A stretch of 64,000 bases of DNA, taken from assembly GCA_965235115.1 (NCBI GenBank), contig OZ249436.1:19408001-19472000 (forward strand), given 5' to 3'. Every line of letters starts with the position of its first letter. Positions within the stretch are counted from its first letter, which is position 1. The notes beneath the pieces were generated by a model. That model was not told the DNA's origin and did no database searches. It saw nothing but the letters and a program-made list of their open reading frames with translations. Below are positions 2,537 through 63,932 of this stretch, piece by piece. The DNA comes from Laetmonice hystrix (lineage: Eukaryota). The position numbers and the translations under genes were made by a program.

Positions 2537-4338
2537 AGCCAGCCACCACTGACTCCAGCCACCACCCACCACTGCCACCACCCACCACTGCCACCACCCA
2601 CCACCCACCACTGACTCCAGCCACCACCCACCACTGCCACCACCCACCACTGACTCCAGCCACCACCCACCACTGCCAGCACCCACCACTGACTCCTGCC
2701 ACCACCCACCACTGCCACCACCCACCACCACTGACTCCAGCCACCACTACCACCACCCACCACCACTGACTCCAGCCACCACCCACCACTGTCACCACCC
2801 ACCACTGTTACCACCCACCACTGACTCCAGCCACCACCCACCACTGACTCCTGCCACCACCCACCACTGCCACCACCCACCACTGACTCCAGCCATCACC
2901 CACCACTGACTCCTGCCACCACCCACCACTGCCACCACCCACCACCGCTGACTCCAGCCACCACTGCCACCACCCATCACTGACTCCAGCCACCACCCAC
3001 CACTGACTCCTGTCACCACCCACCACTGACTCCAGCCACCACTGACTCCAGCCACCACTGCCACCACCCACCACTGCCACCACCCACCACCACTGACTCC
3101 AGCCACCACTGCCACCACCCACCACTGACTCCTGCCACCACCCACCACTGACTCCTGCCACCACCCACCACTGCCACCACCCACCACTGACTCCTGCCAC
3201 CTCCCACCACTGCCACCACCCACCACCGCTGACTCCAGCCACCACTGCCACCACCCACCACTGACTCCAGCCACCACCCACCACTGACTCCATCCACCAC
3301 CCACCACTGACTCCTGCCACCACCCACCACTGCCACCACCCACCACTGACTCCTGCCACCACCCACCACTGCCACCACCCACCACCACTGACTCCAGCCA
3401 CCACTGCCACCACCCACCACTGACTCCATCCACCACCCACCACTGACTCCTGCCACCACCCACCACTGCCACCACCCACCACTGCCACCACCCACCACCA
3501 CTGACTCCAGCCACCACTGCCACCACCCACCACTGACTCCTGCCACCACCCACCACTGACTCCTGCCACCACCCACCACTGCCACCACCCACCACTGACT
3601 CCTGCCACCTCCCACCACTGCCACCACCCACCACCGCTGACTCCAGCCACCACTGCCACCACCCACCACTGACTCCAGCCACCACCCACCACTGACTCCA
3701 TCCACCACCCACCACTGACTCCTGCCACCACCCACCACTGCCACCACCCACCACTGACTCCTGCCACCACCCACCACTGCCACCACCCACCACCACTGAC
3801 TCCAGCCACCACTGCCACCACCCACCACTGACTCCATCCACCACCCACCACTGACTCCTGCCACCACCCACCACTGCCACCACCCACCACTGACTCCTGC
3901 CACCACCCACCACTGCCACCACCCACCACCACTGACTCCAGCCACAACTGCCACCACCCACCACTGACTCCATCCACCACCCACCACTGACTTCAGCCAC
4001 CACTGACTCCAGCCACCACCCACCACTGACTCCAGCCACCACTGACTCCTGCCACCACTGACTCCAGCCACCACTGACTCCAGTCACCACTGACTCCAGC
4101 CACGACTGCCACCACCCACCACTGACACCACCCACCACTGACACCAACCACCACTAACACCACCCACCACTGACACCACCCACCACTAACACCACCCACC
4201 ACTGGCACCACCCACCACTGGCACCACCCACCACTGACTCCAGCCACCACTGACACCACCCACCACTGACACCAACCACCACTGACACCACCCACCACTG
4301 ACACCAACCACCACTGACACCAACCACCACTGACACCA
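2537..4338. repeat. C/A-rich minisatellite of 16/23-bp modules (CCACCACCCACCACTG[ACTCCAG]) with a 408-bp higher-order duplication
   Basis: Rare variants (CCTCCC at 3201/3609; CGCT at 3227/3635) recur 408 bp apart. Confidence 0.92.
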
Positions 4339-5450
4339 GTCATGGATCTGTGGACTGAAACGGGTTACGTACGGAGGTAGTCTGTAAGTCATGGATCTGT
4401 AGACTGAAACGGGTTACGTACGGAGGTAGTCTGTAAGTCATGGATCTGTGAACTGAAACGGGTTACGTACGGAGGCAGTCGGTAAGTCATGGATCTGTGG
4501 ACTGAAACTGGTTACGTACGGAGGCAGTCTGTAAGTCATGAATTCAGATCTGTGAACTGAAACGGGTTACGTACGGAGGCAGTCTGTAAGTCATGAATTC
4601 AGATCTGTGAACTGAAACGGGTTACGTACGGAGGCAGTCTGTAAGTCATGGATCTGTGAACTGAAACGGGTTACGTACGGAGGCAGTCTGTAAGTCATGG
4701 ATCTGTGGACTGAAACGGGTTACGTACGGAGGCAGTCTGTAAATCATGAATTCAGATCTGTGGACTGAAACGGGTTACGTACGGAGGCAGTCCGTAAGTC
4801 ATGAATTCAGATCTGTAGACTGAAACGGGTTACGTACGGAGGCAGTCTGTAAATCATGAATTCAGATCTGTGAACTGAAACGGGTTGCGTACGGAGGCAG
4901 TCTGTAAGTCATGGATCCGTGAACTGAAACGGGTTACGTACGGAGGCAGTCTGTAAGTCATGGATCTGTGAACTGAAACGGGTTACGTACGGAGGCAGTC
5001 TGTAAGTCATGAATTCAGACTGAAACGTACGGAGGCAGTCTGTAAGTCATGAATTCAGACCTGTGAACTGAAACGTACGGAGGCAGTCTGTAAGTCATGG
5101 ATCTGTGAACTGAAACTGGTGACGTACGGAGGCAGTCTGTAAGTCATGAATTCAGATCTGTGGACTGAAACGGGTTACGTACGGAGGCAGTCTGTAAGTC
5201 ATGGATCTGTGAACTGAAACGGGTTACGTACGGAGGCAGTCTGTAGGTCATGGATCTGTGGACTGAAACTGGTTACGTACGGAGGCAGTCTGTAAGTCAT
5301 GAATTCAGATCTGTGAACTGAAACTGGTGACGTACGGAGGCAGTCTGTAAGTCATGAATTCAGATCTGTGAACTGAAACTGGTGACGTACGGAGGCAGTC
5401 TGTAAGTCATGAATTCAGATCTGTGGACTGAAACGTACGGAGGCAGTCAG
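4339..5450. repeat. 49/55-bp minisatellite (GTCATGGATCTGTGAACTGAAACGGGTTACGTACGGAGGCAGTCTGTAA), ~21 copies
   Basis: Direct reading; abuts the preceding array. Confidence 0.95.
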
Positions 5451-26220: not shown

Positions 26221-26455
26221 TCATCAGTCCGTCACGGGGTCCGTTTGTAATACAGACGTCTGGGTTTATTACCTGCAGGTCCAGTGATCAGTGAGGATCT
26301 CCACACGGGAGTGAGACGTCCGTCCTGTCTGAGCGGTCCGTATCAACCGGCCACGTGTACGGCGGAGCACGGGGCGAGGTGGTAGACAGCGCCCGGCGAT
26401 ACCCGCTCTCCCTCCCGGCAATCTTTCCCACACCCACCGACCGCCAGCCAGGCCG

Positions 26456-26660
26456 ATGATGCAGCACTACGCGGCGGCTGCGGCCGCGGCGGCCGGCGGG
26501 CTGGGCGGTCCGGGACCCGGTCACTCAATGTTCGGGCTCCCGGCACCGCCCCAGCTGTCCCCGCACCCGTCAATGCTCAGCCCGGCCCAGTGTCTACCTC
26601 ACCTCGGCCCCAACATGGCCCCCTCCGCTCATACCGTGGCCCTGGCTGAACGACTCGCAG
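26456..26660 (+). CDS. DMBX1: Dmbx homeobox gene, coding exon 1 (MMQHY...HTVALAERLA)
   Basis: ATG at 26456. The MQHY N-terminus and ALAERLA motif match DMBX1 (MQHY...[16 protein letters not shown]). Ends at GCAG|GTAAGT donor (26661), phase 1. Confidence 0.93.
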
Positions 26661-27147
26661 GTAAGTCTACCTTCATAATACCTCACATTCTCACAATCAC
26701 AATCACATTGCCTCTTATACAAGTATCTGCCTATACTTTCTACCAGGAAATACGACTATTAGCGCGACTCTCTACGACATGTGTGCACTTTTTTTATTTG
26801 AAATATTTACCCTGCTATAATGTAGGCTACTAGACCTATATATTATATCAGAGCATAATGAAAACTAAAACAAAGCTAAACATAAGCCTGTAGGCGAATC
26901 CATCATCTTGAAAAAAGCTAGGCGGTAGTGCGACTGCGACAGCTGCCGAAGACGGTCCACCTTAAATGAATCCGGGGACTCAAGTAGAAATGTAAGGAAA
27001 ATATAATAAAAAAAAAGGAAGTGGCCTGCGGGGGGCGAAGGGTAGAAAATATTAAGCCCTCGCCCCCCCCCCCCCCACCGGAACAGACGGGGAAAGGCGC
27101 CGCGTTCGGTCCATTAAATTGTTTCCTGGAACAACGCCGAACAATAA

Positions 27148-28059
27148 TCACCCGCGCCCTGTGATAATACCACCCGCGCCCTGTGATACCCGACAATATA
27201 CCACCCGCGCCCTGTGATACCCGACAATATACCACCCGCGCCCTGTGATACCCGAACAATATAGCCTACCACCCGCGCCATGTGATACCCGACAATATAC
27301 CACCCGCGCCCTGTGATACCCGACAATATACCACCCGCGCCCTGTGATACCCGACAATATACCACCCGCGCCCTGTGATACCCGAACAATATACCACCCG
27401 CGCCCTGTGATATACCCGAACAATATACCACCCGCGCCCTGTGATACCCGAACAATATACCACCCGCGCCATGTGATACCCGACAATATACCACCCGCGC
27501 CCTGTGATACCCGAACAATATACCACCCGCGCCCTGTGATACCCGACAATATACCACCCGCGCCCTGTGATACCCGACAATAATTATACCACCCGCGCCA
27601 TGTTATACCCGACAATATACCACCCGCGCCCTGTGATACCCGAATAATATACCACCCGCGCCCTGTGCTACCCGAACAATATATACCACCCGCGCCCTGT
27701 GATACCCGAACAATATACCACCCGCGCCCTGTGATACCCGACAATATACCACCCGCGCCCTGTGATACCCGAACAATATACCACCCGCGCCCGGTGATAC
27801 CCGAACAATATACCACCCGCGCCCTGTGATACCCGACAATATACCACCCGCGCCCTGTGATATATACCACCCGCGCCCTGTGATATATACCACCCGCGCC
27901 CTGTGATATATACCACCCGCGCCCTGTGATACCCGAACAATATACCACCCGCGCCCTGTGATACCCAACAATTTACCACCCGCGCCCTGTGCTACCCGAC
28001 AATTTACCACCCACGCCCGGTGATACCCGAACAATATACCACCCGCGCCCTGTGATACC
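27148..28059. repeat. 31/32-bp minisatellite (ATACCACCCGCGCCCTGTGATACCCGA[A]CAAT) in Dmbx intron 1
   Basis: Direct reading. Confidence 0.95.
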
Positions 28060-29349
28060 AAAAGTCATACCCGGTCTGGTTGTTGAATGCACGCGTGTTA
28101 CTCAGTGAGAATTAGGATCTATCGAAACAAATGTTACGCCGGATTAGAGATGGATTAGGAGGGTGGGGATATCTTTGAAAAAAGTACATAAGATGTAGAA
28201 TATTGTGCATTTGTTTTCCTCGGAACCTTTGCCTGAGCTATCAACTAAAATGCTGCAGGAAGTAGAATTTTACTTCTACTTTATATTTATAAAACCGAAT
28301 GCCGAAACGAAACAAACGCAGGTCTAAAACACTTGGAAAATTATAAATGAAGTTTTAGGAGTCTTTGTTTCACAGATCGCAGACCGTACACGGCTGTGTG
28401 AGAGCCATGTTAACCCTCATTGTGATCATTCTATACGTGATGAGATGACCGGAGGATTCAAAACACCCCCAAAACATGACGTCTCATAATCCGGGATCAC
28501 CCCCAGAGTAATCCCAGGACAAGGCCATACATGTTCAACCATGCATTGGCAAACCTTGGCCGTAGGCCCCGAAAACTGATCAGAAAAATAAAGCACAGTT
28601 GGTATTTCTATATATTTTAATCTTTATTTGAAATTTCTTGTCCCCCTCCTTATACGTCCCTGGTCGCTGGCCAGCCCGGGGGGGGGGGCTGCGGGGGGTT
28701 GGGGGGGGGGGGTTGGTCGGGGGTGCAGCCGGTCTAATCGCCGTGTTGGCGAGGAAAAATCGACAATCCAGTGGCGTGGAGAGGATTTGTGTTTGATCGG
28801 CGGTTTCAGTTCGATCCTCAACAATTAAGTCTAATCCTTTAATGGTAATTGGATGGGGCTTTGGTTACTCGCATCGTTAGTGTTTTTATCTCGACAAAAC
28901 TCGCCACACATAATGGGCCAAGTCTAAGCGAATTACGTACACAGTACAGCCGGGCCGAGTGGAGATAGGAGACAGGTACAAGTCATCAAAGTGTGTTCGT
29001 TAGGTCGAGCAAATTGTTCCCACCATACGCAATGTATAGCTTTCTTTGAGTTATGTCAGAAGTTGATACAAAATGCGGCATGATGATGGTGGTTATACGG
29101 AACGGCCATGTTGGTAGGATGAGGTTCAATGAGTTCAGCCGGAGGGTAGGGGCCGGGTAGGAGGGAGGGGTGGATGGGGGGGGGGGGGTGTATGGCCGGA
29201 AATTAACGCTCTGATCCAGAGCTTTGTGATGAAGATGATCGTACACGGCCCGTGGCAAAACACAGCATCCCGGGATCGGTTAAACTTGTGTGTCAATACG
29301 TCTGCATGTTAACAGTTACACAGGCTCGAACGGGGGTGTCATCATTGGG

Positions 29350-29930
29350 GGTATCACAAAGGATATCATAGAGGATATAGATGATATCATAGAATATCAC
29401 AAAGGATATCATAGGATATCTCAAAGGATATCATATGATATCGTAGATGATATCATAGGATAACACAGAGGATATCATAGGATATCATAGATGATATAGG
29501 ATCTCACAGAGGATATCACAAAGGATAGCATATGCTATCATAGAGGGTATCATATCATATAAGATATCATAGAGGATATCACAGAGGATATCATAGGATA
29601 TCATAGAGCTTGGTTATCATAGGATATCACTATATATCACAAAGGATAGCATATGATATCATAGACGATATCATAGAGGATGATATCACATAGAATATCA
29701 CAGAGAATATCACAGAGGTCAGAGGATATCATAGAGGATATCCCCTGCTCCGGTCGGTCCGGTTAGACGTTGTATCCAGGTCCACCATAGCCCCGAATGG
29801 AAGATACTACAGAGAATATCATAAGGGATATAAAAATATATCATAAAATTTTATAGATGATATCAAGATATCATAGAGGATAGATCTATAACAGAATATC
29901 AGAGTATACTATAGACGATACCACAGGATA
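29350..29930. repeat. Degenerate GGATATCATA/GATATCACA short-period repeat, interrupted at ~29742-29810
   Basis: Many GATATC units. Confidence 0.8.
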
Positions 29931-32900
29931 CCAGGTTTAGGGGTACGGGTCTGGGTAGGGGTAGGTTGGATTTAATGTCGTTTCCCATAGTCCTGGCTTA
30001 GAAAATACAACATAGTTTCTAGGCCTAGACCTACTCCGATACGATGGACTGGGACTTTGGTTTGATTTCGTAACCACCCTCTCCGTCCCCGTAACCCGAT
30101 AGAGATATGATAATCCCAAAGATGAGCTGGTTACATTGGATAATCCACCAGCGAACAGATCTGTGTTGACGTGCTCAGTTTAGTAAGACATGTCAATATC
30201 ACCAGCTATGAGATCAACCACTCCGTCACTCATCATTATGTCATCTCAACATCCGCCGGTAGTTGGAGTATCCCATAATCCATACATTGTGACGTCATAA
30301 TCCACACATTGTCTGACGTTATAATAATCGCAGGTCAATGTTGTGTGTATCGCAATTATGGATTGCCCCATGTATAGGCATATTTCTTGGGAGTTATATA
30401 TTCAGATAGTTAATCATATTGAATACAATATACACTGTAATGTAGGCCTATATTAGGCACTATAATGTAGCCATAATTATTATAATATCTAATTTTATGT
30501 AGGCCTAGATTTATACGCGTTGCAAGGATAGGCCTGCGTGCATGGAGGGCTTCCACATAGGCCTACATGTTTAAATGTGCACCTATTACACATAGTGCCT
30601 ATTGACCACAACCCACACAAATATATACACACAACTGTAGCAGGGTCTATGCTCATGTACCTTTGTGGCTCGCCCGCCATGGATGTCGACGTGTGTACAC
30701 ACACTTAGCTGATCGCTCATACACATATAACAAGATCCTCGCTACTGTTTCCAAACAAAGTGCCCACCTGACAATGATAATCAAACACCAACGTTTTTAA
30801 CCAGCCCCTAAAAACATCTCCACCGACTGAGAGGGTGCAGACCGGCCTGGCAGCGACCCCTACCGGCCTTCTGTTTGTCCGGGCCTGCCGTAATGTCTAA
30901 GACGGTTTTTGGGGACTCATATTGAAAGTATTGTCATCGCTCACCCCTCGCTCTCTGCCCGTGTCGATTAACAAAGGATCAAGGGTTTGATCTATGCTGA
31001 GGTCTGCGGGACAAACAACTGTGGCCATTCTCACTCAGGTCACACATGTCGGCCACAAACGTCGGCAATCCTGCCAGATCTACGCCGATCGTCGTGAGAG
31101 GGCGCTGTGAGCGGGGCAGGGTTACCATCCGGGTCTCGCGCGGCCAGATAATGACCCTTCAGATACCAGTTAAAGGCGTGAGAAAAAAATGGCGCCAACC
31201 AGAAGCTTGCCAGACGCTGGCGCCATGTGTGTGCTGTTCATGACGGAGCTATAGGAATGGGACGCTTGTAGAACAGGAGGACTGCTCCCACGCTAACAGC
31301 CATCACGGGGGGGGGGGGGGGGGTACCTAGAAACATAATGTGTGGGTATGTGTGACAGGTTTGCTCAGACAAAAGTGCGGTAATATGAAAAACATATGAA
31401 ACAGGGCCAAAAAACGGCCACGTTTGTGATTTCTGATAATAAAATAAAAAGACAGAACACCTTTGTTGCCATCCGATGATAAAAAAAAGTTTCCCGTGTT
31501 CTGAAGAAACAACACTTTATTACGCGTGGGTGTTCTAGCTGGGAAATGTAAAGTTACATCTATATTTTACTATGTCTTGATGTGCCGAGATAAGTCGCTA
31601 TTAGACGGTCCACTGCTCACAGTCAGGGTGAGACAGGAGAAGCTGATGTCTATACAAGTCGAGAGTTGTACTGGCCTGTGTCCGTGGTGGTGGTGGTGGT
31701 GGTGGGGGGGGGGGGGGGGGCATTTATACTGTAATACGATCGTCTTTAAGTTATGGAAGCTACCATTGAGGTAGCAGGGCCCGTGCCCCCTGACACCCCC
31801 GGAGGTCGGTGCTCATTCTCCCCCCGACCAGCACCTTGACATGTCCGCCGGCCTTGAGGGCACCTTGTCCAGGGCTCAGGTAGCCCGCTCAACGCTCTCA
31901 TTATGGTAATGTAATCGAGGTGTTAGTCAGCAAATCTCAGGTGGGTATCGCTCAGGTAAATAAACGTCGCTGATCGTCACTTGATGCGGCACTGATCCCA
32001 GGGCTTGTATCCGCGGACCGAGCACTTAATCTGAGAAAATCTTCCCCGGAAATATTGACCCCCCGACCTGGTCATCACCAGGGGGCGCTCTGCGATGTAC
32101 CCAGGACAAACACCTATTAACACCCGTGGGGATTTTAACGAAGAAAGGGACAAATATCATTGACTGATAGAACAACATATTAATGCTGATCCAGGAGGGG
32201 TTAGTTTAGAGGGGCCGTCTCATGAATTATGTATTGGCATACATTGCAGGCGGGAAGGGCCTGGCCCACTGACTGTGACTATTGTGGACGCGGCCCCCCA
32301 CCCAGCATATATAATAACAGTAGCGTGCGCAATGTCTGACGACGCATCGCGGGAGTTTCTTAGGGTTGAGGTGGTATCATCCTTTGGGTCAATACGATGG
32401 ACACCTGCAGGTGTGAAAGTTCGTACCTTGATCTATGGGAATGCGACCTTGGAGGGGTTTAAAGGGCACCCGGTGTGAGGAAGGGGGGAACCTGGCGGAC
32501 GCGAGGGGAACTTCAAGTAACAATTTGCATATCTTCCTTTACAGCACCTGCCGAGTGTTGGGAGGGCGAGGACTCACTTGGCTAGGGTCATTATTAACTA
32601 GCTCACAAGGGTTGCCGGATGTTTCACGTAAAATGGTTGCGCAAAATATTATTGTCAAATAATGCTCCTTTGGTGTGTTTTTACTCTTGGTGAGGGACTC
32701 AACTTGGACACTGAGACAGTGAATTATTTGAGACTTGACTTCCAACTCTCTGTTTTGAGATTGTCAGTGTTATCTTAGTACATCGATGGGGACAGGTATA
32801 ATGTGTAGAAGTAGTGCTCGTTTACTTGTTGCCAATTTTAAAATGAAACATACCAGTTAAATAGAAACTATATCGAGCAATGTTAACAAGAGGTGCATGA

Positions 32901-32939
32901 TGTTTTGTACCGCTGTCTTACCGTTGTTTTTGTGCCGAT

Positions 32940-33574
32940 GTCTTAGTTTGGAACCCTTGTCTTACCGTAGTTTGGAACCCTTGTCTTACCATAGTTTGGA
33001 ACCCTTGTCTTACCGTAGTTTGGAACCCTTGTCTTACCGTAGTTTGGAACCCTTGTCTTACCGTAGTTTGGAACCCTTGTCTTACCATAGTTTGGAACCC
33101 TTGTCTTACCGTAGTTTGGAACCCTTGTCTTACCGTAGTTTGGAACCCTTGTCTTACCGTAGTTTGGAACCCTTGACTTACCGTAGTTTGGAACCCTTGA
33201 CTTACCGTAGTTTTGAACCGCTGTCCTACCGTAGTTTGGACCCCTTGTCTTACCGTAGTTTGGTACCCTTGACTTACCGTAGTTTGGAACCCTTGACTTA
33301 CCGTAGTTTTGAACCGCTGTCCTACCGTAGTTTGGAACCCTTGTCTTACCGTAGTTTGGAACCCTTGACTTACCGTAGTTTGGAACCCTTGACTTACCGT
33401 AGTTTTGAACCGCTGTCTTACCGTAGTTTGGACCCCTTATCTTACCGTAGTTTGGACCCCTTGTCTTACCGTAGTTTGGTACCGCTGTCCTACCGTAGTT
33501 TGGACCCCTTGTCTTACCGTAGTTTGGTACCCTTGCATTACCGCAGTTTTGAACCCTTGTTTTACCGTAGTTTA
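32940..33574. repeat. 24-bp minisatellite (TTTGGAACCCTTGTCTTACCGTAG), ~26 copies, ending just upstream of the Dmbx exon 2 acceptor
   Basis: Direct reading; explains the SLEPLSYR ORF. Confidence 0.95.
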
Positions 33575-33596
33575 TAGGCCTACGGCTGTGTTTCAG

Positions 33597-33772
33597 ACAT
33601 TATTCTGGAGGCGCGCTACGGGGCCCACCGGAAGCAGCGGCGGTCACGGACAGCGTTTACCAATCAGCAGCTGGCAGCGCTCGAGAAGACCTTCGCCAAG
33701 ACGCACTACCCGGATGTAGTGATGAGAGAGAGGTTGGCAATGATGACCAACCTCCCGGAGGCCAGAATCCAG
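33597..33772 (+). CDS. DMBX1: Dmbx coding exon 2: [59 protein letters not shown] (homeodomain 1-46)
   Basis: TTTCAG| acceptor; phase 1 joins exon 1 (G|AC=D); CAG|GTACGC donor at the canonical PRD-class Q46/V47 intron position. This frame is not shown in the ORF track. Confidence 0.96.
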
Positions 33773-33802
33773 GTACGCATCCACGCTCTCTTCTGGATGT
33801 TT

Positions 33803-33913
33803 TCAGTACTTGCTGCAATGTCGCTATTTTTTACCCGGGTATTCCAGTTTGCCCCGCCAGTAAAGCTGACCTCTTGAATATGATCTGGTTCTTGTTGTGG
33901 CGTATAAACCCCA
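33803..33913 (+). mobile_element. Degenerate 3' half of a V-domain-type SINE inside the Dmbx homeobox intron
   Basis: CCGGGTATTCCAGTTTGCCCCGCCAGTAAAGCTGACC...GTGGCGTATAAACC resembles, from memory, the CCGGGTACTCCGGTTTCCTCCACCAATAAAACTGACC...GTGGCGTTAAAC tail of mollusc SINEs. Not checked against a library. Confidence 0.45.
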
Positions 33914-34076
33914 AGGTCAAATCATTGTAACTGACTGATAGGTGTCATCAAAATACTGTCCGTAGACAGTAATGTTTGCTACAGGGCCACGCCAAAAAAC
34001 TGACCTACTGATAATCCCTGTTATTTGTTTGTTGCTGTATGTTACTGTTGATACATTGATTTATGTTTTATTGTAG

Positions 34077-34365
34077 GTATGGTTCAAAAACCGTCGTGCA
34101 AAGTTCCGAAAGAAGCAGCGTGCTCTCAAGGTCAAGGTCAAGGACACAAAGGTCAAGGACGTTAAAGACGACGAGAAAGAGGCTGCGGACGGTCACGAGT
34201 CGGCTGCCAACGACGACCCGACCGACGACGACTGCGGGTGTCAGATTGACGTCGACGATGACGTCACGTCAGTGAGCGGTGAGGGTGGAGGTGAAGAGGT
34301 CAAGGACACGACGTCCGACTGGGAGGGGACTGGCGGACAGGGTGGCAACGCTGATGACGTCACAG
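34077..34365 (+). CDS. DMBX1: Dmbx coding exon 3: VWFKNRRAKFRKKQR (K50 helix 3) plus acidic linker
   Basis: TTGTAG| acceptor; WFKNRRAKFRK; open to ACAG|GTATGT donor, phase 1. Confidence 0.94.
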
Positions 34366-35455
34366 GTATGTGCATGTTCCCGTCGCCGGTTAACGTCTTT
34401 AGGGCCTGAATACTGGGGGATTGTTTCACAAACAACGAGAGGTGGTCCGACGAACCAATAATAGGCCTACTAGGCCCTACAACCAGGCCATAGACACCCA
34501 GAGACGATGCGTGTCCGGTTGGAGTGTTTGAATCGGCCCCCAGACTTCAACCAATTCACTTCACACTAGTGCAACCATGATGTTGTGACTGAGATCAGAA
34601 GACAATGTAGTACTAAACAAAAAACATTGCCCTGTCCTTTTCATGGGGTTATTTTCATTATTATAATCCCAGGCCCGTACGACACTTTTCAAAAAGGGGG
34701 GTGGCATGACTTGGAATTAATTCGCGCAAACGTGGCAGTGCACGTTTTGCGGCGTGTGCCCAATGATACACGTGTGTTTGCAACCCTCGTAACCCTCGTC
34801 AAATGGGGTAGGAGCAATCTCTCGCTTTGAGAAGTTCTCCCCCTTTTTCTCCCATTTCGAGTTCTTCGATTGACCTCAAAAGTAGTGAGAATGAGAGGAA
34901 AAGTGTGCTAAATGGCGTCAAAATTAATGGCGGAGGAGCAATCTCTCGCTTTGGGAAGTCTTCCCTCTTTATCGCCCATTTCGAGTTCACCATGCATGCA
35001 TTGTTTTTGGGATGTACATGTCCTCACAAAATGCTATTAAGTCTGTACCATCTATATTCTTACCATTATGACCTGCTTATATCATATCTAATGTCATATA
35101 GGGGCATACATAGAAATCGAGGTAAATCTGACAGAAACGGGGTGTGTGACCGCGCCATATCCTATATTATTAACACTGGTTCAGCATGAGAGGAGAGAGG
35201 TTGTTTTTCAATATTCGGAATGAGGAGCATAGGTAATTATGAAACATTTCGTGACTGTAGGGCTACCATTGAAGCATTATCTCCACCAACGACTGCGGTA
35301 GAGATTAGTTAGCGTCAGCCCCAGCTCATCCCATGATTGCTCCAGATTTCTGTTGATCCCAAACTTTACATTCCTGCATAGACGTAGGGGATTACATTAT
35401 AGCCCAGGTGATGACGAACCCCCTTTTTTGACGACCTGATGTTTTGTTTTGACAG

Positions 35456-35650
35456 GACCAGCCGACCGGCTTGGTGGCCATGATGACACGTGCTGCCCAG
35501 CGGCAGGCGATGACGGAGGTTACCGGCAGCCGGGGCCTACTCCCCGGCCTCCCAGTCGGTCCCCGAGCCGGTGTACGGACCCCGGTCCTGCCTCCCCGCT
35601 ACACCGAGACAGCAAGGATGTCCTGGCCGACTTCCCGGCCCAGTTCTCAG
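35456..35650 (+). CDS. DMBX1: Dmbx coding exon 4 (Pro/Ser-rich linker, GPADRLGG...DFPAQFS)
   Basis: GTTTTGTTTTGACAG| acceptor and CAG|GTGAGA donor; 195 nt, phase 1-1, open frame compatible with flanking exons. No homology evidence. Confidence 0.75.
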
Positions 35651-35680
35651 GTGAGATATACCGGGTGCAGCCACTGAGAT

Positions 35681-35775
35681 ACACTACAAACACGTAACAG
35701 GATAAAGGTCCTTCATGGCGCATGAATACGGCACGATACCGAAGGTGGAGTGCCGTATTGATGCACCAGGCATCG
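35681..35775. mobile_element. Truncated relative of the 1406-1622 MITE, inside Dmbx intron 4
   Basis: AAACACGTAACAGGATAAAGGTCCTTCA resembles the TIR; TGGCGCATGAATACGGCACGATACCGAAGGTG resembles the reverse complement of the element interior. Confidence 0.55.
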
Positions 35776-36236
35776 AGTTACATTATACTTTCCTGTCGCG
35801 AAGGAGCCGGATCCCGTTAGGTGTTATTATGTGCCTGGATTATTTCTAATTTAAGGAAAACGAACAACATTTAACAAGACTTCCAGATCCTCTGAGGGCC
35901 TAATTTATAATATGGCCCAAAACGTGTATAATAAAGGTCTCCGCTCTTGGTGCGTAATTTATAATAGACCTTCCATTGGGCCACATAGTTAACGTTGCGT
36001 CAACTCGAAACGTGTATCTCAGTCGTATAGAACACGCATTCCATACCAATCACCATAATGGCACCCCCTGAATGACACTGGCAGATTAAGGCGCATATAA
36101 TAAAAATGTATTAGTCATGTACGGCCTATACAGTTTCCTCATATTTATATACAGTGTACTAGTAGCCCATACAAGAAGCAATTGTACATATTTTATTGGG
36201 CTATACAATGCATGTTCAAGTCGTATTCCTCTTCAG

Positions 36237-36730
36237 TTTCAGAGGGACTCGGTTCCAGTTTGGATTCCAAGGCCCATCTAATGTCGTTTGCTGGGTTTCC
36301 GTCACCGTCCCTAAGTTCGTCTCTAAGTCTGCTCCAGTTCCAACACCAGCTCCAGCAGCAAGCCACCTCCGTCGGACCGCCCGTCTTCCAGCGTCAAAAC
36401 CTCTCCATGCCGTATTCCGCTCAGTCCCACTTCCAGCGTCCCGTCTTCCCGGCGAACAGCTCACTTCCGTCCCTGTCGGCGGCTGCGCCCTCCTCCTGGT
36501 CACCCTACTTCCTGTTTGCACGCGGCCCGCAACCATTTATCTCAATGGCCGATACGCATGCGTCGACCGGACTTCCGTCTACGTCACGCAGTATGAGTGG
36601 AAACATGACGTCAGGCACGTTTGGAGTCAGTAACCATGGTAACCACAAGGACAACATGTTAAACAGCAGCATCGAGAGTCTGAGGATCCGCGCTCGGCAA
36701 CACTCGGCCTCGCTCGGCTACTACGAGTGA
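36237..36730 (+). CDS. DMBX1: Dmbx terminal coding exon with OAR domain (NSSIESLRIRARQHSASLG)
   Basis: CTCTTCAG| acceptor (alternative in-frame AG 6 nt downstream), phase 1; OAR motif; TGA at 36728-36730. Summed exons are 1359 nt = 452 aa + stop. Confidence 0.9.
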
Positions 36731-40879: not shown

Positions 40880-42288
40880 CACACTTACCATACTGAACCT
40901 GTGCCACACACCCCACTTACCATACTGAACCTGTGTCACACGCCGCACTTACCATACTGAACCTGTGTCACACACCACACTTACCACACTGAACCTGTGT
41001 CACACACCACACTTACCACACTAAACCTGTGTCACATACCACACTTACCATACTGAATATGTGTCACACACCACACTTACCACACTGAACCTGTGTCACA
41101 CACCACACTTACCACACTGAACCTGTGTCACACACCACACTTACCATACTGAATATGTGTCACACACCACACTTACCATACTGAACCTGTGTCACACACC
41201 ACACTTACCACACTGACCCTGTGTCACACACCACACTTACCATACTGAACCTGTGTCACACACCACACTTACCATACTGAACCTGTGTCACACACCACAC
41301 TTACCACACTGAACCTGTGTCACATACCACACTTACCACACTGAACCTGTGTCACACACCGCACTTACCACACTGAACCTGTGTCACACACCACACTTAC
41401 CATACTGAACCTGTGTCACACACCACACTTACCATACTGAACGTGTGTCACACACCGCACTTACCATACTGAACCTGTGTCACACACCGCACTGAACCTG
41501 TGTCACACACCGCACTGAACCTGTGTCACACACCACACTTACCATACTGAACCTGTGTCACACACCACACTTACCATACTGAACCTGTGGCACACACCAC
41601 ACTGAAGCTGTGTCACACACCGCACTTACCATACTGAACCTGTGTCACACACCGCACTTACCATACTGAACCTGTGTCACACACCGCACTTACCATACTG
41701 AACCTGTGTCACACACCACACTTACCACACTGAACATGTGTCACACACGACACTTACCATACTGAACCTGTGTCACACACGACACTTACCATACTGAACC
41801 TGTGTCACACACCACACTTACATACTGAACCTCTGTCACACATGACACTTACATACTGAACCTGTGTCACACACCACACTTACATACTGAACCTGTGTCA
41901 CACACCACACTTACCATACTGAACCTGTGTCACACACCGCACTTACCATACTGACCCTGTGCCACACACCGCACTTACCATACTGAACCTGTGTCACACA
42001 CCGCACTTACCATACTGAACCTGTGTCACACACCGCACTTACCATACTGAACCTGTGTCACACACCGCACTTACCATATTGAACCTGTGTCACACACCGC
42101 ACTTACCACACTGAACCTGTGTCACACACCACACTTACCATATTGAACCTGTGTCACACACCACACTTACCATACTGAACCTGTGTCACACACCACACTT
42201 ACCATACTGAACCTGTGTCACACACCGCACTTACCATACTGAACCTGTGTCACACACCACACTTACCATACCGAACCTGTGTCACACA
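40880..42288. repeat. 32-bp minisatellite (CACACTTACCATACTGAACCTGTGTCACACAC), ~44 copies
   Basis: Direct reading. Confidence 0.95.
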
Positions 42289-42481
42289 TAAACATTCCTA
42301 TCTTAGGTCAATCATATTGGCGACCACCTACTTCAAATCGGAATGGCATGGTGCTGTCTGTTTAACGTGTCAGTTCTGTTGTTAGCTATCCCCGGTCTAT
42401 GATGGGATCGGATCTCAATCTAGACATGAGTCGACGCTGATCCATCCAATCACGGTACGACCAAATCCCTGGTCATCAAGC

Positions 42482-43320
42482 GGTACACTGGCGACTGTGT
42501 GGTGTTGGTGTGGTACACTGGCAACTGTTTGATGTTGGTGTGGTACACTGGCAACTGTGTGGTGTTAAACAAGTATGGTACACTGGCAACTGTGTGGTGT
42601 TAAACAAGTATGGTACACTGGCGACTGTGTGGTGTTAAACAAGTATGGTACACTGGCGACTGTGTGGTGTTGACCAGTATGGTACACTGGCGACTGTGTG
42701 GTGTTGACCAGTATGGTACACTGGCGACTGTGTGGTGTTGACCAGTATGGTACACTGGCAACTGTGTGGTGTTGGTATGGTACACTGGCGACTGTGTGGT
42801 GTTGGTGTGGTACACTGGCATCTGTGTGGTGTTGGTGTGGTACACTGGCAACTGTGTGGTGTTGGTATGGTACACTGGCAACTGTGTGGTGTTGGTGTGG
42901 TACACTGGCAACTGTGTGGTGTTGGTGTGGTACACTGGCAACTGTGTGGTGTTGGCATGGTACACTGGCGACTGTGTGGTGTTGGTGTGGTACACTGTCA
43001 ACTCTGTGGTGTTGGTGTGGTACACTGGCATCTGTGTGGTGTTGGTGTGGTACACTGGCAACTGTGTGGTGTTGGTGTTGAACACTGGCATCTGTGTGGT
43101 GTTGGTGTGGTACACTGGCAACTGTGTGGTGTTGGTGTGGTACACTGGCATCTGTGTGGTGTTGGTGTGGTACACTGGCAACTGTGTGGTGTTGGTGTTG
43201 AACACTGGCATCTGTGTGGTGTTGGTGTGGTACACTTGCAACTGTGTGGTGTTGGTGTGGTACACTGGCAACTGTGTGGTGTTGGTGTGGTACACTGGCA
43301 ACTCTGTGGTGTTGGTATGG
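42482..43320. repeat. 30-bp minisatellite (TACACTGGCAACTGTGTGGTGTTGGTGTGG)
   Basis: Direct reading. Confidence 0.95.
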
Positions 43321-43326
43321 TCAACT

Positions 43327-44631
43327 CCCTATCACTACCATTTCATATACTACTCACTCACACATGGCCACACTAAACCGTGGGTTATACCTGCCCTATC
43401 ACTACCATTTCATATACTACTCACTCACACATGGCCACACTAAACCCTGGGTTATACCTGCCCTATCACTACCATTTCATTTACTACTCACTCACACATG
43501 GCTACACTAAACCCTGGGTTATACCTGCCCTATCACTACCATTTCATATACTACTCACTCACACATGGCCACACTAAACCCTGGGTTATGCCTGCCCTAT
43601 CACTACCATTTCATATACTACTCACTCACACATGGCCACACTAAACCGTGGGTTATACCTGCCCTATCACTACCATTTCATATACTACTCACTCACACAT
43701 GGCCACACTAAACCCTGGGTTATACCTGCCCTATCACTACCATTTCATATACTACTCACTCACACATGACCACACTAAACCCTGGGTTATACCTGCCCTA
43801 TCACTACCATTTCATATACTACTCACTCACACATGGCCACACTAAACCCTGGGTTATACCTGCCCTATCACTACCATTTCATATACTACTCACTCACACA
43901 TGGCCACACTAAACCCTGGGTTATGCCTGCCCTATCACTACCATTTCATATACTACTAACTCACACATGACCACACTAAACCCTGGGTTATGCCTGCCCT
44001 ATCACTACCATTTCATATACTACTCACTCACACATGGCCACACTAAACCCTGGGTTATACCTGCCCTATCACTACCATTTCATATACTACTCACTCACAC
44101 ATGGCCACACTAAACCGTGGGTTATACCTGCCCTACCACTACCATTTCATATACTACTCACTCACACATGGCCACACTAAACCCTGGGTTATACCTGCCC
44201 TATCACCACCATTTCATATACTACTCACTCACACATGGCTACACTAAACCCTGGGTTATACCTGCCCTATCACTACCATTTCATATACTACTCACTCACA
44301 CATGACCACACTAAACCCTGGGTTATGCCTGCCCTATCACTACCATTTCATATACTACTCACTCACACATGGCCACACTAAACCCTGGGTTATGCCTGCC
44401 CTATCACTACCATTTCATATACTACTCACTCACACATGACCACACTAAACCCTGGGTTATGGCTGCCCTATCACTAACATTTCATATACTACTCACTCAC
44501 ACATGGCCACACTAAACCCTGGGTTATGGCTGCCCTATCACTACCATTTCATATACTACTCACTCACACATGGCCACACTAAACCGTGGGTTATACCTGC
44601 CCTATCACTACCATTTCATATACTACTCACT
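43327..44631. repeat. 67-bp minisatellite (CCCTATCACTACCATTTCATATACTACTCACTCACACATGGCCACACTAAACCCTGGGTTATACCTG), ~19 copies
   Basis: Direct reading; abuts the preceding array. Confidence 0.96.
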
Positions 44632-44961
44632 CTAACACTAACAAGCAATACTGCAGCGGGGGTTCCGTTCTCTTAACCCCGAAAATAAAACGCAGGCAGG
44701 GAGGGCGGACAAGGCTACCCCCCCCACCCCACCACCACCACGGGTGGACTGGACGCAGGGAGGACGGGCAAGGCCTAACCCCCTCCCATCCCCACCCCTG
44801 TGTTATTCTCAAATCAGAGCCACAGACTGCGGTCCAAGACGCGAGCCCCAATAACGTTCATGTTGATTTATATAGGCCAATTGGTTCCTGGTGGGGGGGG
44901 GGGGGGGGGGGGGGCTAGCGGGTCATTGGTCCGGAGGGGATGTTTGGGGGTGCAATGGTGT

Positions 44962-47686: not shown

Positions 47687-49186
47687 ATGGCCTCTCCGAG
47701 GATCACCAAGGCGACAGGCTGTGTCAGACTTAAGGGAACCAATCGACTCCTCGTCTGCGCTGGCCTCCTCATATTCACGTGCTATTTTATGTCCGAGTTA
47801 GCGTTGAGGTCGTGGACTCTGGATGATTCGTACCACGGTCAGGCACCGCTCTGTGGCGGTCAACATGACGGATCGCTACGATTCCAGGCCATGCCATGTG
47901 CTCCAGTACGAGTTACCCCCAGGAGTTATGAACTGCCACCTGGAAGAGAACTGACCGCTCAGCCCACCGAGGACGCCAGCTGGAATGAATCGCAGTTCGT
48001 CTCGTGGATGGCGCCCTCTGAGATTGGAGTTGACAGAGCCGCCGTGCAGGCTCGTGCCCGGCCCGGAAACCCTCATCACCCTCGGGGTCGGCAGGTGACC
48101 GGCGGAGGTCTACAGGTGGAGCGACCACCACCCCTCGGCCGGGCCTTTCATAGACCCCACAACAAGGGGCGGCCGGAGGGGGCAGGTCACGGGGTCAAAG
48201 CCCTGGAGGGCACGCCCAGTAAACACCAGGGGGAAGGTGTTACACGACCACCATCCTCCAGCAAGCGGCCTGGAGTGCAGGGGGCCCTAGAGAGGCGGTT
48301 TTACAGCCGTAGATTTACCAGGGTAAATCCGCACGACTTCACGGTGGTGTACAACGCCAGCGGGGTCTGTGCCCAGCCACCCTACCTCATCATTATCATC
48401 CCATCACTGCCCAGCGCACGGGACAGGAGGAACGCCATCCGGGACACCTGGGGCGGCGTCTCCAACTCCTCCAGGTGGCTAGACATCGAGCTCAGTTACA
48501 AGGTCAAGGTCGCCTTCCTCCTGGGTCGGACCGAATCGGAGCGGTTGAGGTACGCCTTACAGGAGGAATACGCCCAGTTTGGGGACATCGTACAGGAGGA
48601 TTTCCTCGAGTCGTATAGGAACCTGAGTCTGAAAACGGTGATGGGTCTGAAGTGGGTGGTAAAGTTTTGTAGCGGTGCGCAGTACGTGATGAAATGTGAC
48701 GATGATATGATCGCTCACATCCCGATGATCGTTGACCTCCTGACCCGGAACAGCTACCGGCGGTCGGTGGTGGGGCATGTTAACAGGGGCGCCGTGGTAC
48801 AGCGCCAGGGGTTGTGGCGTCTGTCGCACGGCGAGTTTCCATTCCACTACTTCCCGCCATACGCCTCGGGTAGTGCCTACATCCTGTCGGCGGACGTGGT
48901 GGGGGCTCTGTACACAACCTCCGAGTATATCCCACTCATACCCATCGAGGATGTCTACGTCACAGGCGTCTTGGGTAAAATGGTAGGGGTCAACCTGGTG
49001 CACGAAGACGGCTTTACGTCATGGAACGCCTTCTCGCCCAGGACATGCGATCTCGCCCTCGGCAGAATCTACACTGGAACTAAAATGACGTCAAATTCTC
49101 TCCGCCGGATGTGGCGGAGGTTGCGCAGCGGTGGTTTAAAATGTAACCGTGACGCGCACCAGCTCGCCATGCGCAGTCAGTACTGA
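47687..49186 (+). CDS. Beta-1,3-galactosyltransferase-like glycosyltransferase (CAZy GT31), type II membrane protein, 499 aa, single coding exon
   Basis: First in-frame ATG at 47687. N-terminal TM LLVCAGLLIFTCYFM, long stem, then GT31 motifs RNAIRDTWG, EDFLESYRNLSLKT, KCDDD (DxD), FPPYASGSAY, IEDVYVTG. An upstream acceptor TTTTTCTTGCAG| at 47467 implies a 5' UTR intron. Confidence 0.93.
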   Translation: MASPRITKATGCVRLKGTNRLLVCAGLLIFTCYFMSELALRSWTLDDSYHGQAPLCGGQHDGSLRFQAMPCAPVRVTPRSYELPPGRELTAQPTEDASWNESQFVSWMAPSEIGVDRAAVQARARPGNPHHPRGRQVTGGGLQVERPPPLGRAFHRPHNKGRPEGAGHGVKALEGTPSKHQGEGVTRPPSSSKRPGVQGALERRFYSRRFTRVNPHDFTVVYNASGVCAQPPYLIIIIPSLPSARDRRNAIRDTWGGVSNSSRWLDIELSYKVKVAFLLGRTESERLRYALQEEYAQFGDIVQEDFLESYRNLSLKTVMGLKWVVKFCSGAQYVMKCDDDMIAHIPMIVDLLTRNSYRRSVVGHVNRGAVVQRQGLWRLSHGEFPFHYFPPYASGSAYILSADVVGALYTTSEYIPLIPIEDVYVTGVLGKMVGVNLVHEDGFTSWNAFSPRTCDLALGRIYTGTKMTSNSLRRMWRRLRSGGLKCNRDAHQLAMRSQY

Positions 49187-59873: not shown

Positions 59874-60545
59874 TTACAGGCCAGTGTTGTTGTATTCCGG
59901 AGGTTTGGGGGGAGGTTCCTCCACCACTGGAGATATCTCCAGGGCTTTGTTCTCCTGGCCCTGGCTGGGATCCAACAAGTCATCTTTGGAGAACTTGAGA
60001 GCCGGGTTTATCTGGCCGTTCGACTCGGCCTTCTTGGTGTTCAAAACAGTCATCTCACCCTCCTCACCGTTACCGCTGTGTTCTTTCAGAGCAATCACTT
60101 CGTCCGGTATGTTGACGACACACATGAAAATATCATAGTTCTTGGGGAGCACTCCGTTCTCAAAGATGTATTTGGTGCTGTAGGACGCGATGAGGATCAC
60201 GGAGAAACTGACGAGCATGCAGAGTGTTTTATACGGGAAGGTTTGAATGTCGTTTTCGTAATCGTAGCCGGGGTATTTGATGACTGATGGGAGGAAGATG
60301 AGCGGTTCTCCGCCGAGTAGACGGAAGAATAGGCCGAGAAGGTAGCCGGCCAGCGAGCCGTAAGTGTTGGTATCACGTAAATAGACCACAGATACCAGCT
60401 GAGGGAAGAGGATGACAAAGACAAGGTCGGCACACAGGTACCACAGGCCGTAGATGGTCGTTATGGTGATTCCCATTACCGTCGCTAGGGCACCCACGCC
60501 AAATATACCCACACGCATGACCCAGATTACTTCACGCTCGGAGGC
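59874..60545 (-). CDS. SLC5A7: High-affinity choline transporter, last coding exon ([18 protein letters not shown]...NNTGL*)
   Basis: Contains [37 protein letters not shown] and FPYKTLCML typical of CHT1; acceptor TCTTCCAG|GCC, phase 0. Confidence 0.95.
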
Positions 60546-61774: not shown

Positions 61775-61989
61775 TTTTTGTCGGAAGATGAGTTTGTAGA
61801 CGTTGCGAGCGAACATGGAGCTGGCAGAGAGCACGGAGGAGTCAGCTGATGACATGACAGCCGCCGACACGGCTCCCAGTCCGATAAATGACACCCAGTT
61901 CGGACAGAGGTGCTGCATGACCATGGGTAGGATCAACTTCTGGTCTTCTGGAGGAATATCAGGCCGCCCCCACTCTGTCTGATTCCAAT
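61775..61989 (-). CDS. SLC5A7: High-affinity choline transporter internal exon (DWNQT...[36 protein letters not shown])
   Basis: Signature [10 protein letters not shown]; acceptor GTGACAG|, donor AAA|GTGAGC; phases 1-0 fit neighbours. Confidence 0.95.
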
Positions 61990-62240: not shown

Positions 62241-62370
62241 CTGCGTTCTTAGCGATAGCTCCGATGATTACTGCAGGGATAGCCATCACCACACAGCCGA
62301 AGGCTGCGATATATGAGAGGAGCTGGGCTCTCAGTGCCGACTTGGACGACAACACACGCTGGAAGTATAC
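62241..62370 (-). CDS. SLC5A7: High-affinity choline transporter internal exon ([11 protein letters not shown]...IGAIAKNA)
   Basis: YFQRVLSS motif; acceptor GTTTCAG|, donor CAG|GTACGT; 130 nt, phase 0-1. Confidence 0.95.
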
Positions 62371-62769: not shown

Positions 62770-63100
62770 GGGGTGGGTGTACTAACCTGCCACGGTATCC
62801 CCCCCAAAGATGAGCAGTAGTGCCGTGTCCAGCCAGGTGTCGGTGTGAGTGACGAGGTTGGGGTGGGGTGTGGGTGTGGGGTGAGGGGATGGGGTGGGGG
62901 TGAGTACTAACCTGCCACGGTATCCCTCCAAAGATGAGCAGTAGTGCCGTGTCCAGCCAGGTGTCGGTGTGAGTGATGAGGTTGGGGTGGGGTGTGGGTG
63001 TGTGTGGGGTGTGGGTGTGGGGTGAGGGGATGGGGTTGGGGTGAGTACTAACCTGCCACGGTATCCCTCCAAAGATGAGCAGTAGTCCCGTGTCCAGCCA
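62770..63100. repeat. Triplicated SLC5A7 exon 3' end plus donor and G-rich intron start (141- and 125-bp spacing)
   Basis: ACTAACCTGCCACGGTATCC..CAAAGATGAGCAGTAGT..CGTGTCCAGCCAG occurs at ~62781, ~62906 and ~63047. Confidence 0.93.
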
Positions 63101-63202
63101 GATGCCCGTGTCGCTTACATTCAGTTCACCGATCCATTCCGTGGCGTTAAACCGGATGTCCTGAACCAAAGGGTTCACCATAGCAAACGGCACGGTCAGC
63201 CA
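63053..63202 (-). CDS. SLC5A7: High-affinity choline transporter internal exon (WLTVPFA...[16 protein letters not shown]); upstream exons lie beyond the window
   Basis: GGIPWQ motif; 150 nt, phase 0-0; acceptor GGATTCAG|, donor CAG|GTTAGT. Both junctions are tandemly duplicated. Confidence 0.92.
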
Positions 63203-63932
63203 CTGAATCCGAGACAAACAACGTGAACAACACAAGTCATTTAGGTAATCGTGAGATATAGCAAACGGCACGGTCAGCCACTGAATCCGAGACAAACAAC
63301 GTGAACAACACAAGTCAGGTAATCGTGAGATATAGCAAACGGCACGGTCAGCCACTGAATCCGAGACAAACAACGTGAACAACACAAGTCATTTAGGTAA
63401 TCGTGAGATATAGCAAACGGCACGGTCAGCCACTGAATCCGAGACAAACAACGTGAACAACACAAGTCAGGTAATCGTGAGATATAGCAAACGGCACGGT
63501 CAGCCACTGAATCCGAGACAAACAACGTGAACAACACAAGTCAGGTAATCGTGAGATATAGCAAACGGCACGGTCAGCCACTGAATCCGAGACAAACAAC
63601 GTGAACAACACAAGTCAGGTAATCGTGAGATATAGCAAACGGCACGGTCAGCCACTGAATCCGAGACAAACAACGTGAACAACACAAGTCAGGTAATCGT
63701 GAGATATAGCAAACGGCACGGTCAGCCACTGAATCCGAGACAAACAACGTGAACAACACAAGCCAGGTAATCGTGAGATATAGCAAACGGCACGGTCAGC
63801 CACTGAATCCGAGACAAACAACGTGAACAACACAAGTCATTTAGGTAATCGTGAGATATAGCAAACGGCACGGTCAGCCACTGAATCCGAGACAAACAAC
63901 GTGAACAACACAAGTCAGGTAATCGTGAGATA
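63181..63932. repeat. 74/78-bp minisatellite, 10 copies, each containing the SLC5A7 3' splice site and the first 22 exon nt
   Basis: Units start at 63181, 63259, 63333, 63411, 63485, 63559, 63633, 63707, 63781 and 63859. Confidence 0.96.

Follow-up and report, generated by a model that had tools for sequence, protein, structure and literature searches.

The 64-kb window, by which we mean the whole stretch of Laetmonice hystrix DNA that was analysed, holds on its minus strand four exons of the choline transporter gene SLC5A7. These are a 150-nt exon at 63053-63202 (50 codons, phase 0/0), a 130-nt exon at 62241-62370, a 215-nt exon at 61775-61989 and the last coding exon at 59874-60545 (672 nt with the stop codon); the window does not reach the exon upstream of these. 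Compared with human CHT1, the 150-nt exon aligned to residues 200-255 (E = 3e-9) and the last exon to residues 373-519 (E = 4e-45). The 215-nt exon gave a match to the Pfam domain SSF, while Pfam searches with the 50-aa, 43-aa and last exons returned no match. When joined, the four exons form 388 codons with 0 internal stops. The best named SLC5A7 matches came from the annelids Lamellibrachia and Capitella, followed by a nemertean, another annelid and molluscs. The gene had been called SLC5A7 in an earlier note on this DNA, and the CHT1 matches together with the SSF domain bear this out.

The splice sites of the 130-nt and 215-nt exons are single-copy; the repeats described below lie at the borders of the 150-nt exon. 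This exon includes the position of the choline-binding tryptophan W254, which aligned within it and which is described as one of the residues of TM6 that cage choline (PMC11589582). In six of 120 homologs (P0017, P0030, P0054, P0059, P0073 and P0088), the gene model breaks exactly before the tryptophan with which the array exon starts, and a seventh homolog, P0070, carries a 5-residue insertion exactly before the same residue. Such breaks and insertions would be expected at a conserved phase-0 intron. Because the models of these seven unrelated animals break or carry an insertion there, and because the joined exons keep a 388-codon open frame, it is very probable that the repeated acceptor is the authentic one of SLC5A7, in agreement with the earlier reading of the site as a real 3' splice site.

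Ten acceptors and three donors at one exon

On the minus strand, 63181-63932 consists of ten head-to-tail units of 74 or 78 bp, each composed of the SLC5A7 intron end (52 or 56 nt) followed by 22 nt of exon (WLTVPFA). TRF described the array by a period of 74, 10.0 copies, 96% matches and a score of 1393, which is far above chance, and a script run on the minus strand likewise counted ten acceptor copies, with exon starts at 63880, 63802, 63728, 63654, 63580, 63506, 63432, 63354, 63280 and 63202. The ten tandem copies reported before the SLC5A7 exon were thus recovered in both ways. The longer form, 78 bp, is that of units 2, 8 and 10; the remaining seven have the 74-bp length. The units differ by just one substitution and one 4-bp indel and fall into three types, which follow each other in irregular order along the array. 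The AG is kept in 10/10 copies. The earlier description of the acceptors as sequence-identical holds from -34 to +22 and fails further upstream, where unit 3 carries a single A>G at -35 and the 74- and 78-type units diverge from -38.

The tenth unit contains the authentic acceptor, and the script confirmed that this last copy (63202) is the only one that leads into the true 150-nt exon. The ninth acceptor, at 63280, lies 78 nt upstream of it; the earlier frame arithmetic was correct in that the segment added by its use (63203-63280) would be in frame and without a stop and would add 26 aa. The other copies had been described as unproductive, and each of acceptors 1-8 (63281-63880) indeed hits the TGA in GGCTGA within the first 74-bp unit that is read through. 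For acceptor 8, the stop falls at codon 27, 221 nt before the exon end. As judged by reading the frames in the sequence, 8 of the 9 decoy acceptors would introduce a premature stop with further junctions downstream of it. Transcripts in which a premature stop lies well upstream of later junctions are subject to NMD.

The donor of the same exon is repeated as well, a feature absent from the earlier description of the locus, and ten acceptors and three donors therefore border one exon. In each of the three donor copies (62787-63111, minus strand), C-rich intron follows some 59 nt from the end of the exon. The exon-like part stops at 63053, 62912 and 62787, respectively; the copies are spaced 141 and 125 bp apart at 81% matches, and the GT is kept in 3/3. 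Use of the second copy (exon end at 62912-62970) would add 141 nt, in frame and stop-free, and thereby 47 aa. The third copy (62787-62846) is decaying: it has an additional substitution and one inserted base, the latter also present in contigs assembled from public sequencing runs, and its use would shift the frame. Divergence is greater among the donor copies than among the acceptor units, so the donor duplication is probably the older of the two. Of the 30 possible pairings of an acceptor with a donor, four preserve the frame and contain no stop. Both properties hold for the decoys closest to the exon on either side (63280 and 62912); that both of these decoys should be in frame is expected by chance in about one case in nine, before stops are considered, and with two cases viewed post hoc this is a hint only.

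The earlier note had asked for raw reads as a check on a single-copy artefact. We used three public runs from one sample, possibly the sample behind the window's assembly. No RNA run with this locus was listed, which carries no information on expression. The kind of the runs is unrecorded; they behave as DNA, because the intron is covered. Run contigs were compared over 63030-63300, a region containing the 150-nt exon, all of unit 10 and a portion of unit 9. All three runs yielded a 104-base contig with one 74-bp unit and the beginning of the next, which we read as a closed loop of 74 + 30 bases in a graph of 31-letter words. Its depth was 366, 852 and 702, while the contig that flanks the third donor copy reached 17.6, 65.1 and 46.4. 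Because the head-to-tail joint is present at high depth in 3/3 runs, a single copy is excluded; the run contigs neither confirm ten copies nor show a longer second allele. The unit/flank depth ratios were 20.8, 13.1 and 15.1 versus 8.0 predicted from the window's haplotype, contig depth being no copy number, and a haplotype-specific flank would halve them to 6.5-10.4. The excess of unit depth (13-21 times the flank versus 8.0) could arise if the second allele is longer, if the assembly was collapsed or if the flank is specific to one haplotype. Contigs were missing from 63112-63179 and 63260-63300, and none extended across 63030-63300, which carries no weight either way.

Border-spanning repeats in other animals

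Tandem repeats across intron-exon borders have been described in amphioxus under the name 'mirages'. They occur at 5' and 3' borders, with splicing reported as undisturbed, and affect Adh3, troponin C, the globins BflGb6 and BflGb9, and PGBD5 (PMC3087553, PMC3902484). Mirage units measure 10-160 bp and their copies are 81-100% alike (PMC3087553, with alignments in its additional files 4-6). The same anatomy is found at the SLC5A7 exon, namely a border-spanning head-to-tail unit, AG and GT kept with the authentic site next to the exon, and a corresponding unit size and likeness; the array and the donor repeat belong to this known repeat type. As in BflGb6, intron end and exon start are tandemly duplicated, and as in BflGb9, exon end and donor are. 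Splice signals are kept in both species, the unit length is in the amphioxus range and the copy next to the exon holds the authentic site. In contrast to the amphioxus mirages, both borders of one exon are amplified here (10 acceptors and 3 donors), the host is Laetmonice hystrix, and the case is known from its sequence. That the situation is new could not be supported, given that the same anatomy has been published as mirages (PMC3087553, PMC3902484) and that human cases in CBS and F7 have been dissected. No report of an annelid mirage was found in the part of the literature that was searched. Intronic minisatellites and silent exon duplications described in an earthworm metallothionein gene (PMC12783039) have an arrangement different from that of the SLC5A7 array.

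Several human loci provide parallels. In CBS 844ins68, 68 bp across an intron/exon junction, a length close to that of the units here, are duplicated upstream of the exon body; splicing strongly prefers the more distal of the two sites and yields normal mRNA (PMC2630376). This source terms the CBS sites 'donor', while the title of Romano et al. 2002, which it cites, says 3' splice site. In contrast to the ten copies found here, CBS 844ins68 has two, and it is a human polymorphism with measured splicing. Splice sites that are identical and tandemly reiterated are also found in F7, 6-16, CBS intron 13, LAMIN B2, PDGF and ABCA7; these are donors, unlike the acceptor of the main array, and thus directly parallel the triplicated donor. 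The authentic, exon-adjacent site is reported to be used alone in the donor minisatellites of F7 IVS7, LAMIN B2 and PDGF, whereas two further copies are used besides the authentic site in 6-16 and CBS intron 13 (PMC1557585). Overall, the exon-adjacent site dominates in the human border minisatellites described, and leakage reaches at most the nearest one or two copies (PMC1557585, PMC5954066). For the ABCA7 intron 18 VNTR, length is reported to track exon skipping and lower expression, not the isoform that retains one unit (PMC5954066). This VNTR is the best precedent for the idea of a copy-number tuner, with the difference that its length effect is demonstrated and that of the SLC5A7 array is hypothetical. 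A catalogue of human repeats linked to splicing lists 9537 cases (PMC10078293).

Splice-site choice and alternative readings

Conservation of the protein points to use of the innermost sites. Among the 108 homologs that have both conserved anchors (12 of the 120 lacked one), the spacing across the acceptor position was 61-63 aa in 106 and at most 70; across the donor position it was 8 aa in 116 of 116. An insertion comparable to decoy use was seen in 0 of the 108. Since the spacing is conserved among homologs, the innermost pair would be required for the transporter. The true acceptor itself does not stand out. A branch-like CTGAC at -35 occurs on 74-type decoys and is missing from the true acceptor (3 of 6 sites inspected), and in RNA folding the true acceptor had a mean unpaired value of 0.33, compared with 0.41-0.53 for decoys. 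As the true acceptor is neither stronger nor more accessible, position is the remaining discriminator. Masking of the decoys by RNA structure was rejected, the true acceptor being the least accessible in folding.

The introns flanking the exon measure 682 and at least 798 nt, both above 250 nt. At introns longer than 250 nt, human splice sites are described as being paired across the exon, with shorter exons preferred (PMC9225289). If these human rules extend to an invertebrate, exon definition would pair 63202 with 63053, which are 150 nt apart and the closest pair across the exon, while decoy acceptors, which lack a close donor of their own, would create exons of 228-828 nt if used. Two observations speak against this explanation: the cross-exon rule is weaker for acceptors, with upstream 3' sites favoured overall and long introns merely lessening that preference (PMC9225289), and some human border minisatellites leak. 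Leakage to acceptors 1-8 would bring a premature stop upstream of three further junctions and lead to NMD, and would represent noise rather than control. The locus had been put forward as a test of exon definition against intron proximity, and it does separate the two rules: across-exon pairing predicts the 150-nt exon (63202/63053), and across-intron pairing predicts a 1094-nt dead exon (63880/62787).

The left flank, the unit joints and the right flank have only about 2 bases in common, which is consistent with one local duplication. The array would thus have arisen by a single local duplication at about 2 bp of microhomology and expanded recently by slippage or unequal exchange; the near identity of the units indicates that it is young. 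We consider it likely that the locus is a neutral mirage minisatellite of which the spliceosome uses only the innermost copy, and that the array leaves with the intron and has no function. The decay of the third donor copy and the single-copy state of 13 of the 15 splice sites located in the window also favour this reading; the mild excess of two border arrays on one exon, and the open frame of the nearest decoy at either border, speak against it. The locus would then be a clean further example of a known and tolerated repeat type, of use chiefly as a caution to those annotating genes in invertebrate genomes rich in repeats.

A less probable reading, which we hold possible but doubtful and whose likelihood overlaps with that given to the neutral mirage, keeps the neutral origin and adds unselected leakage: acceptor 9 or donor 2 would be used in a few percent of transcripts, adding 26 or 47 aa and escaping NMD, with some exon skipping. 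It draws on the nearest copies that leak in 6-16 and CBS intron 13 (PMC1557585) and in ABCA7 (PMC5954066), on the size of the acceptor 9 exon, which at 228 nt stays below 250 nt, on the CTGAC that this acceptor carries at -35, and on the 4/30 pairs that remain open. The regular splicing reported at mirage loci by RT-PCR (PMC3087553) argues against it, as does the fact that no homolog contains such insertions; moreover, the form with 47 additional aa would double part of TM6 at the choline site. Far less credible is the proposal that the array tunes gene output, according to which its length varies among individuals, more decoys cause more NMD and the resulting choline-transporter dosage is under selection. 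We give an equally low chance to its extended form, in which ten acceptors combine with three donors and polymorphic array length determines how much leaks into longer in-frame forms and into forms destined for NMD, so that choline uptake is tuned. Points in favour of a tuner are the premature stop reached from eight decoys, the dependence of ABCA7 splicing and expression on VNTR length (PMC5954066), haplotype differences in amphioxus mirages (PMC3087553), and the unit depth of 13-21 times the flank versus the expected 8.0, which may point to a longer second allele. However, depth is no copy number, and a haplotype-specific or under-covered flank would be a simpler cause; in ABCA7, the isoform retaining one unit was reported constant with VNTR size and it was exon skipping that changed (PMC5954066). 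The array's presence is also accounted for by the local repeat density given below, and its near-identical units indicate a young array, which makes conserved control unlikely. Elements of regulated unproductive splicing (AS-NMD) are typically conserved across species; among the windows indexed for comparison, 0 resembled this one. Nothing that we tested supported the earlier suggestion of a copy-number tuner acting through NMD, mirages being reported as splicing-neutral and the human CBS and F7 cases having been dissected. If copy number did alter transporter output, mirages would no longer be neutral curiosities but a source of variation in expression, and the SLC5A7 array would be the first of them with a role in dosage. 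With its 10 x 3 sites it would also form a natural grid on which exon definition could be tested in an invertebrate.

That the array is really a single copy and was misassembled appears extremely improbable, an assessment that applies to the single-copy version of this reading. Nearly identical units, an amphioxus mirage that was misassembled in a draft genome (PMC3087553), the lack of a contig across the stretch and a depth not exactly matching ten copies would fit an artefact; the joint recovered from every run at a depth far above the flank, and the irregular order of three unit types, do not. Equally remote is a role of the units as micro-exons or recursive-splicing points, which the complete acceptor and the GT dinucleotides in each unit might suggest. 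In a recursive splice (ratchet) site, the AG is directly followed by GT and a donor is regenerated. All ten acceptors instead read AG and then TG, which regenerates no donor, and no GT in the units has both a purine at +3 and a G at +5, whereas 6 of 7 real donors in the window have both as judged by eye. With these donor motifs missing, the micro-exon and ratchet readings were rejected.

Repeat load and other genes of the window

In total, 28 arrays with a period of at least 20 occupy 21,641 bases, or 33.8% of the window. They are unrelated to each other and several of them abut, for example at 40880-44632. Fifteen splice sites were located in the window's two multi-exon genes; 13 of these are single-copy and two are repeated, both on the array exon. 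Under uniform seeding, 0.29 arrays would be expected on 15 splice sites, with P(>=1) = 0.26 and P(>=2) of about 0.04, figures that are rough and post hoc. One border array therefore requires no special cause, two on one exon represent a mild excess, and the presence of the array is explained by local repeat density. With regard to a general targeting of splice sites, this window taken by itself (2/28 arrays, 2/15 sites) shows a weak excess at most.

Two further arrays contain words that resemble splice sites. In the 49/55-bp array at 4338-5435, the plus strand of the consensus includes a donor-like GTAAGT, and its minus strand contains words resembling acceptors; no host gene for this array was identified among the nearby open frames scanned. 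The 24-bp array at 32944-33573 (plus strand) contains, 20 times without change, a pyrimidine-rich word that ends in TAG. These acceptor-like decoys are not copies of the real site, and the array ends 23 nt before the acceptor of homeobox exon 2 at 33597.

The homeobox gene to which this exon belongs, at 26455-36727 on the plus strand, is of the paired type and has five exons, an OAR motif (Pfam) and an open frame; all eight of its splice sites are single-copy. From its N-terminal motif, it may be Drgx/Prrxl1-like. Pfam searches with four other open frames in the window gave no match. A single-exon open reading frame of 498 aa at 47687-49183 on the plus strand encodes a galactosyltransferase domain (PF01762, E = 3e-44).
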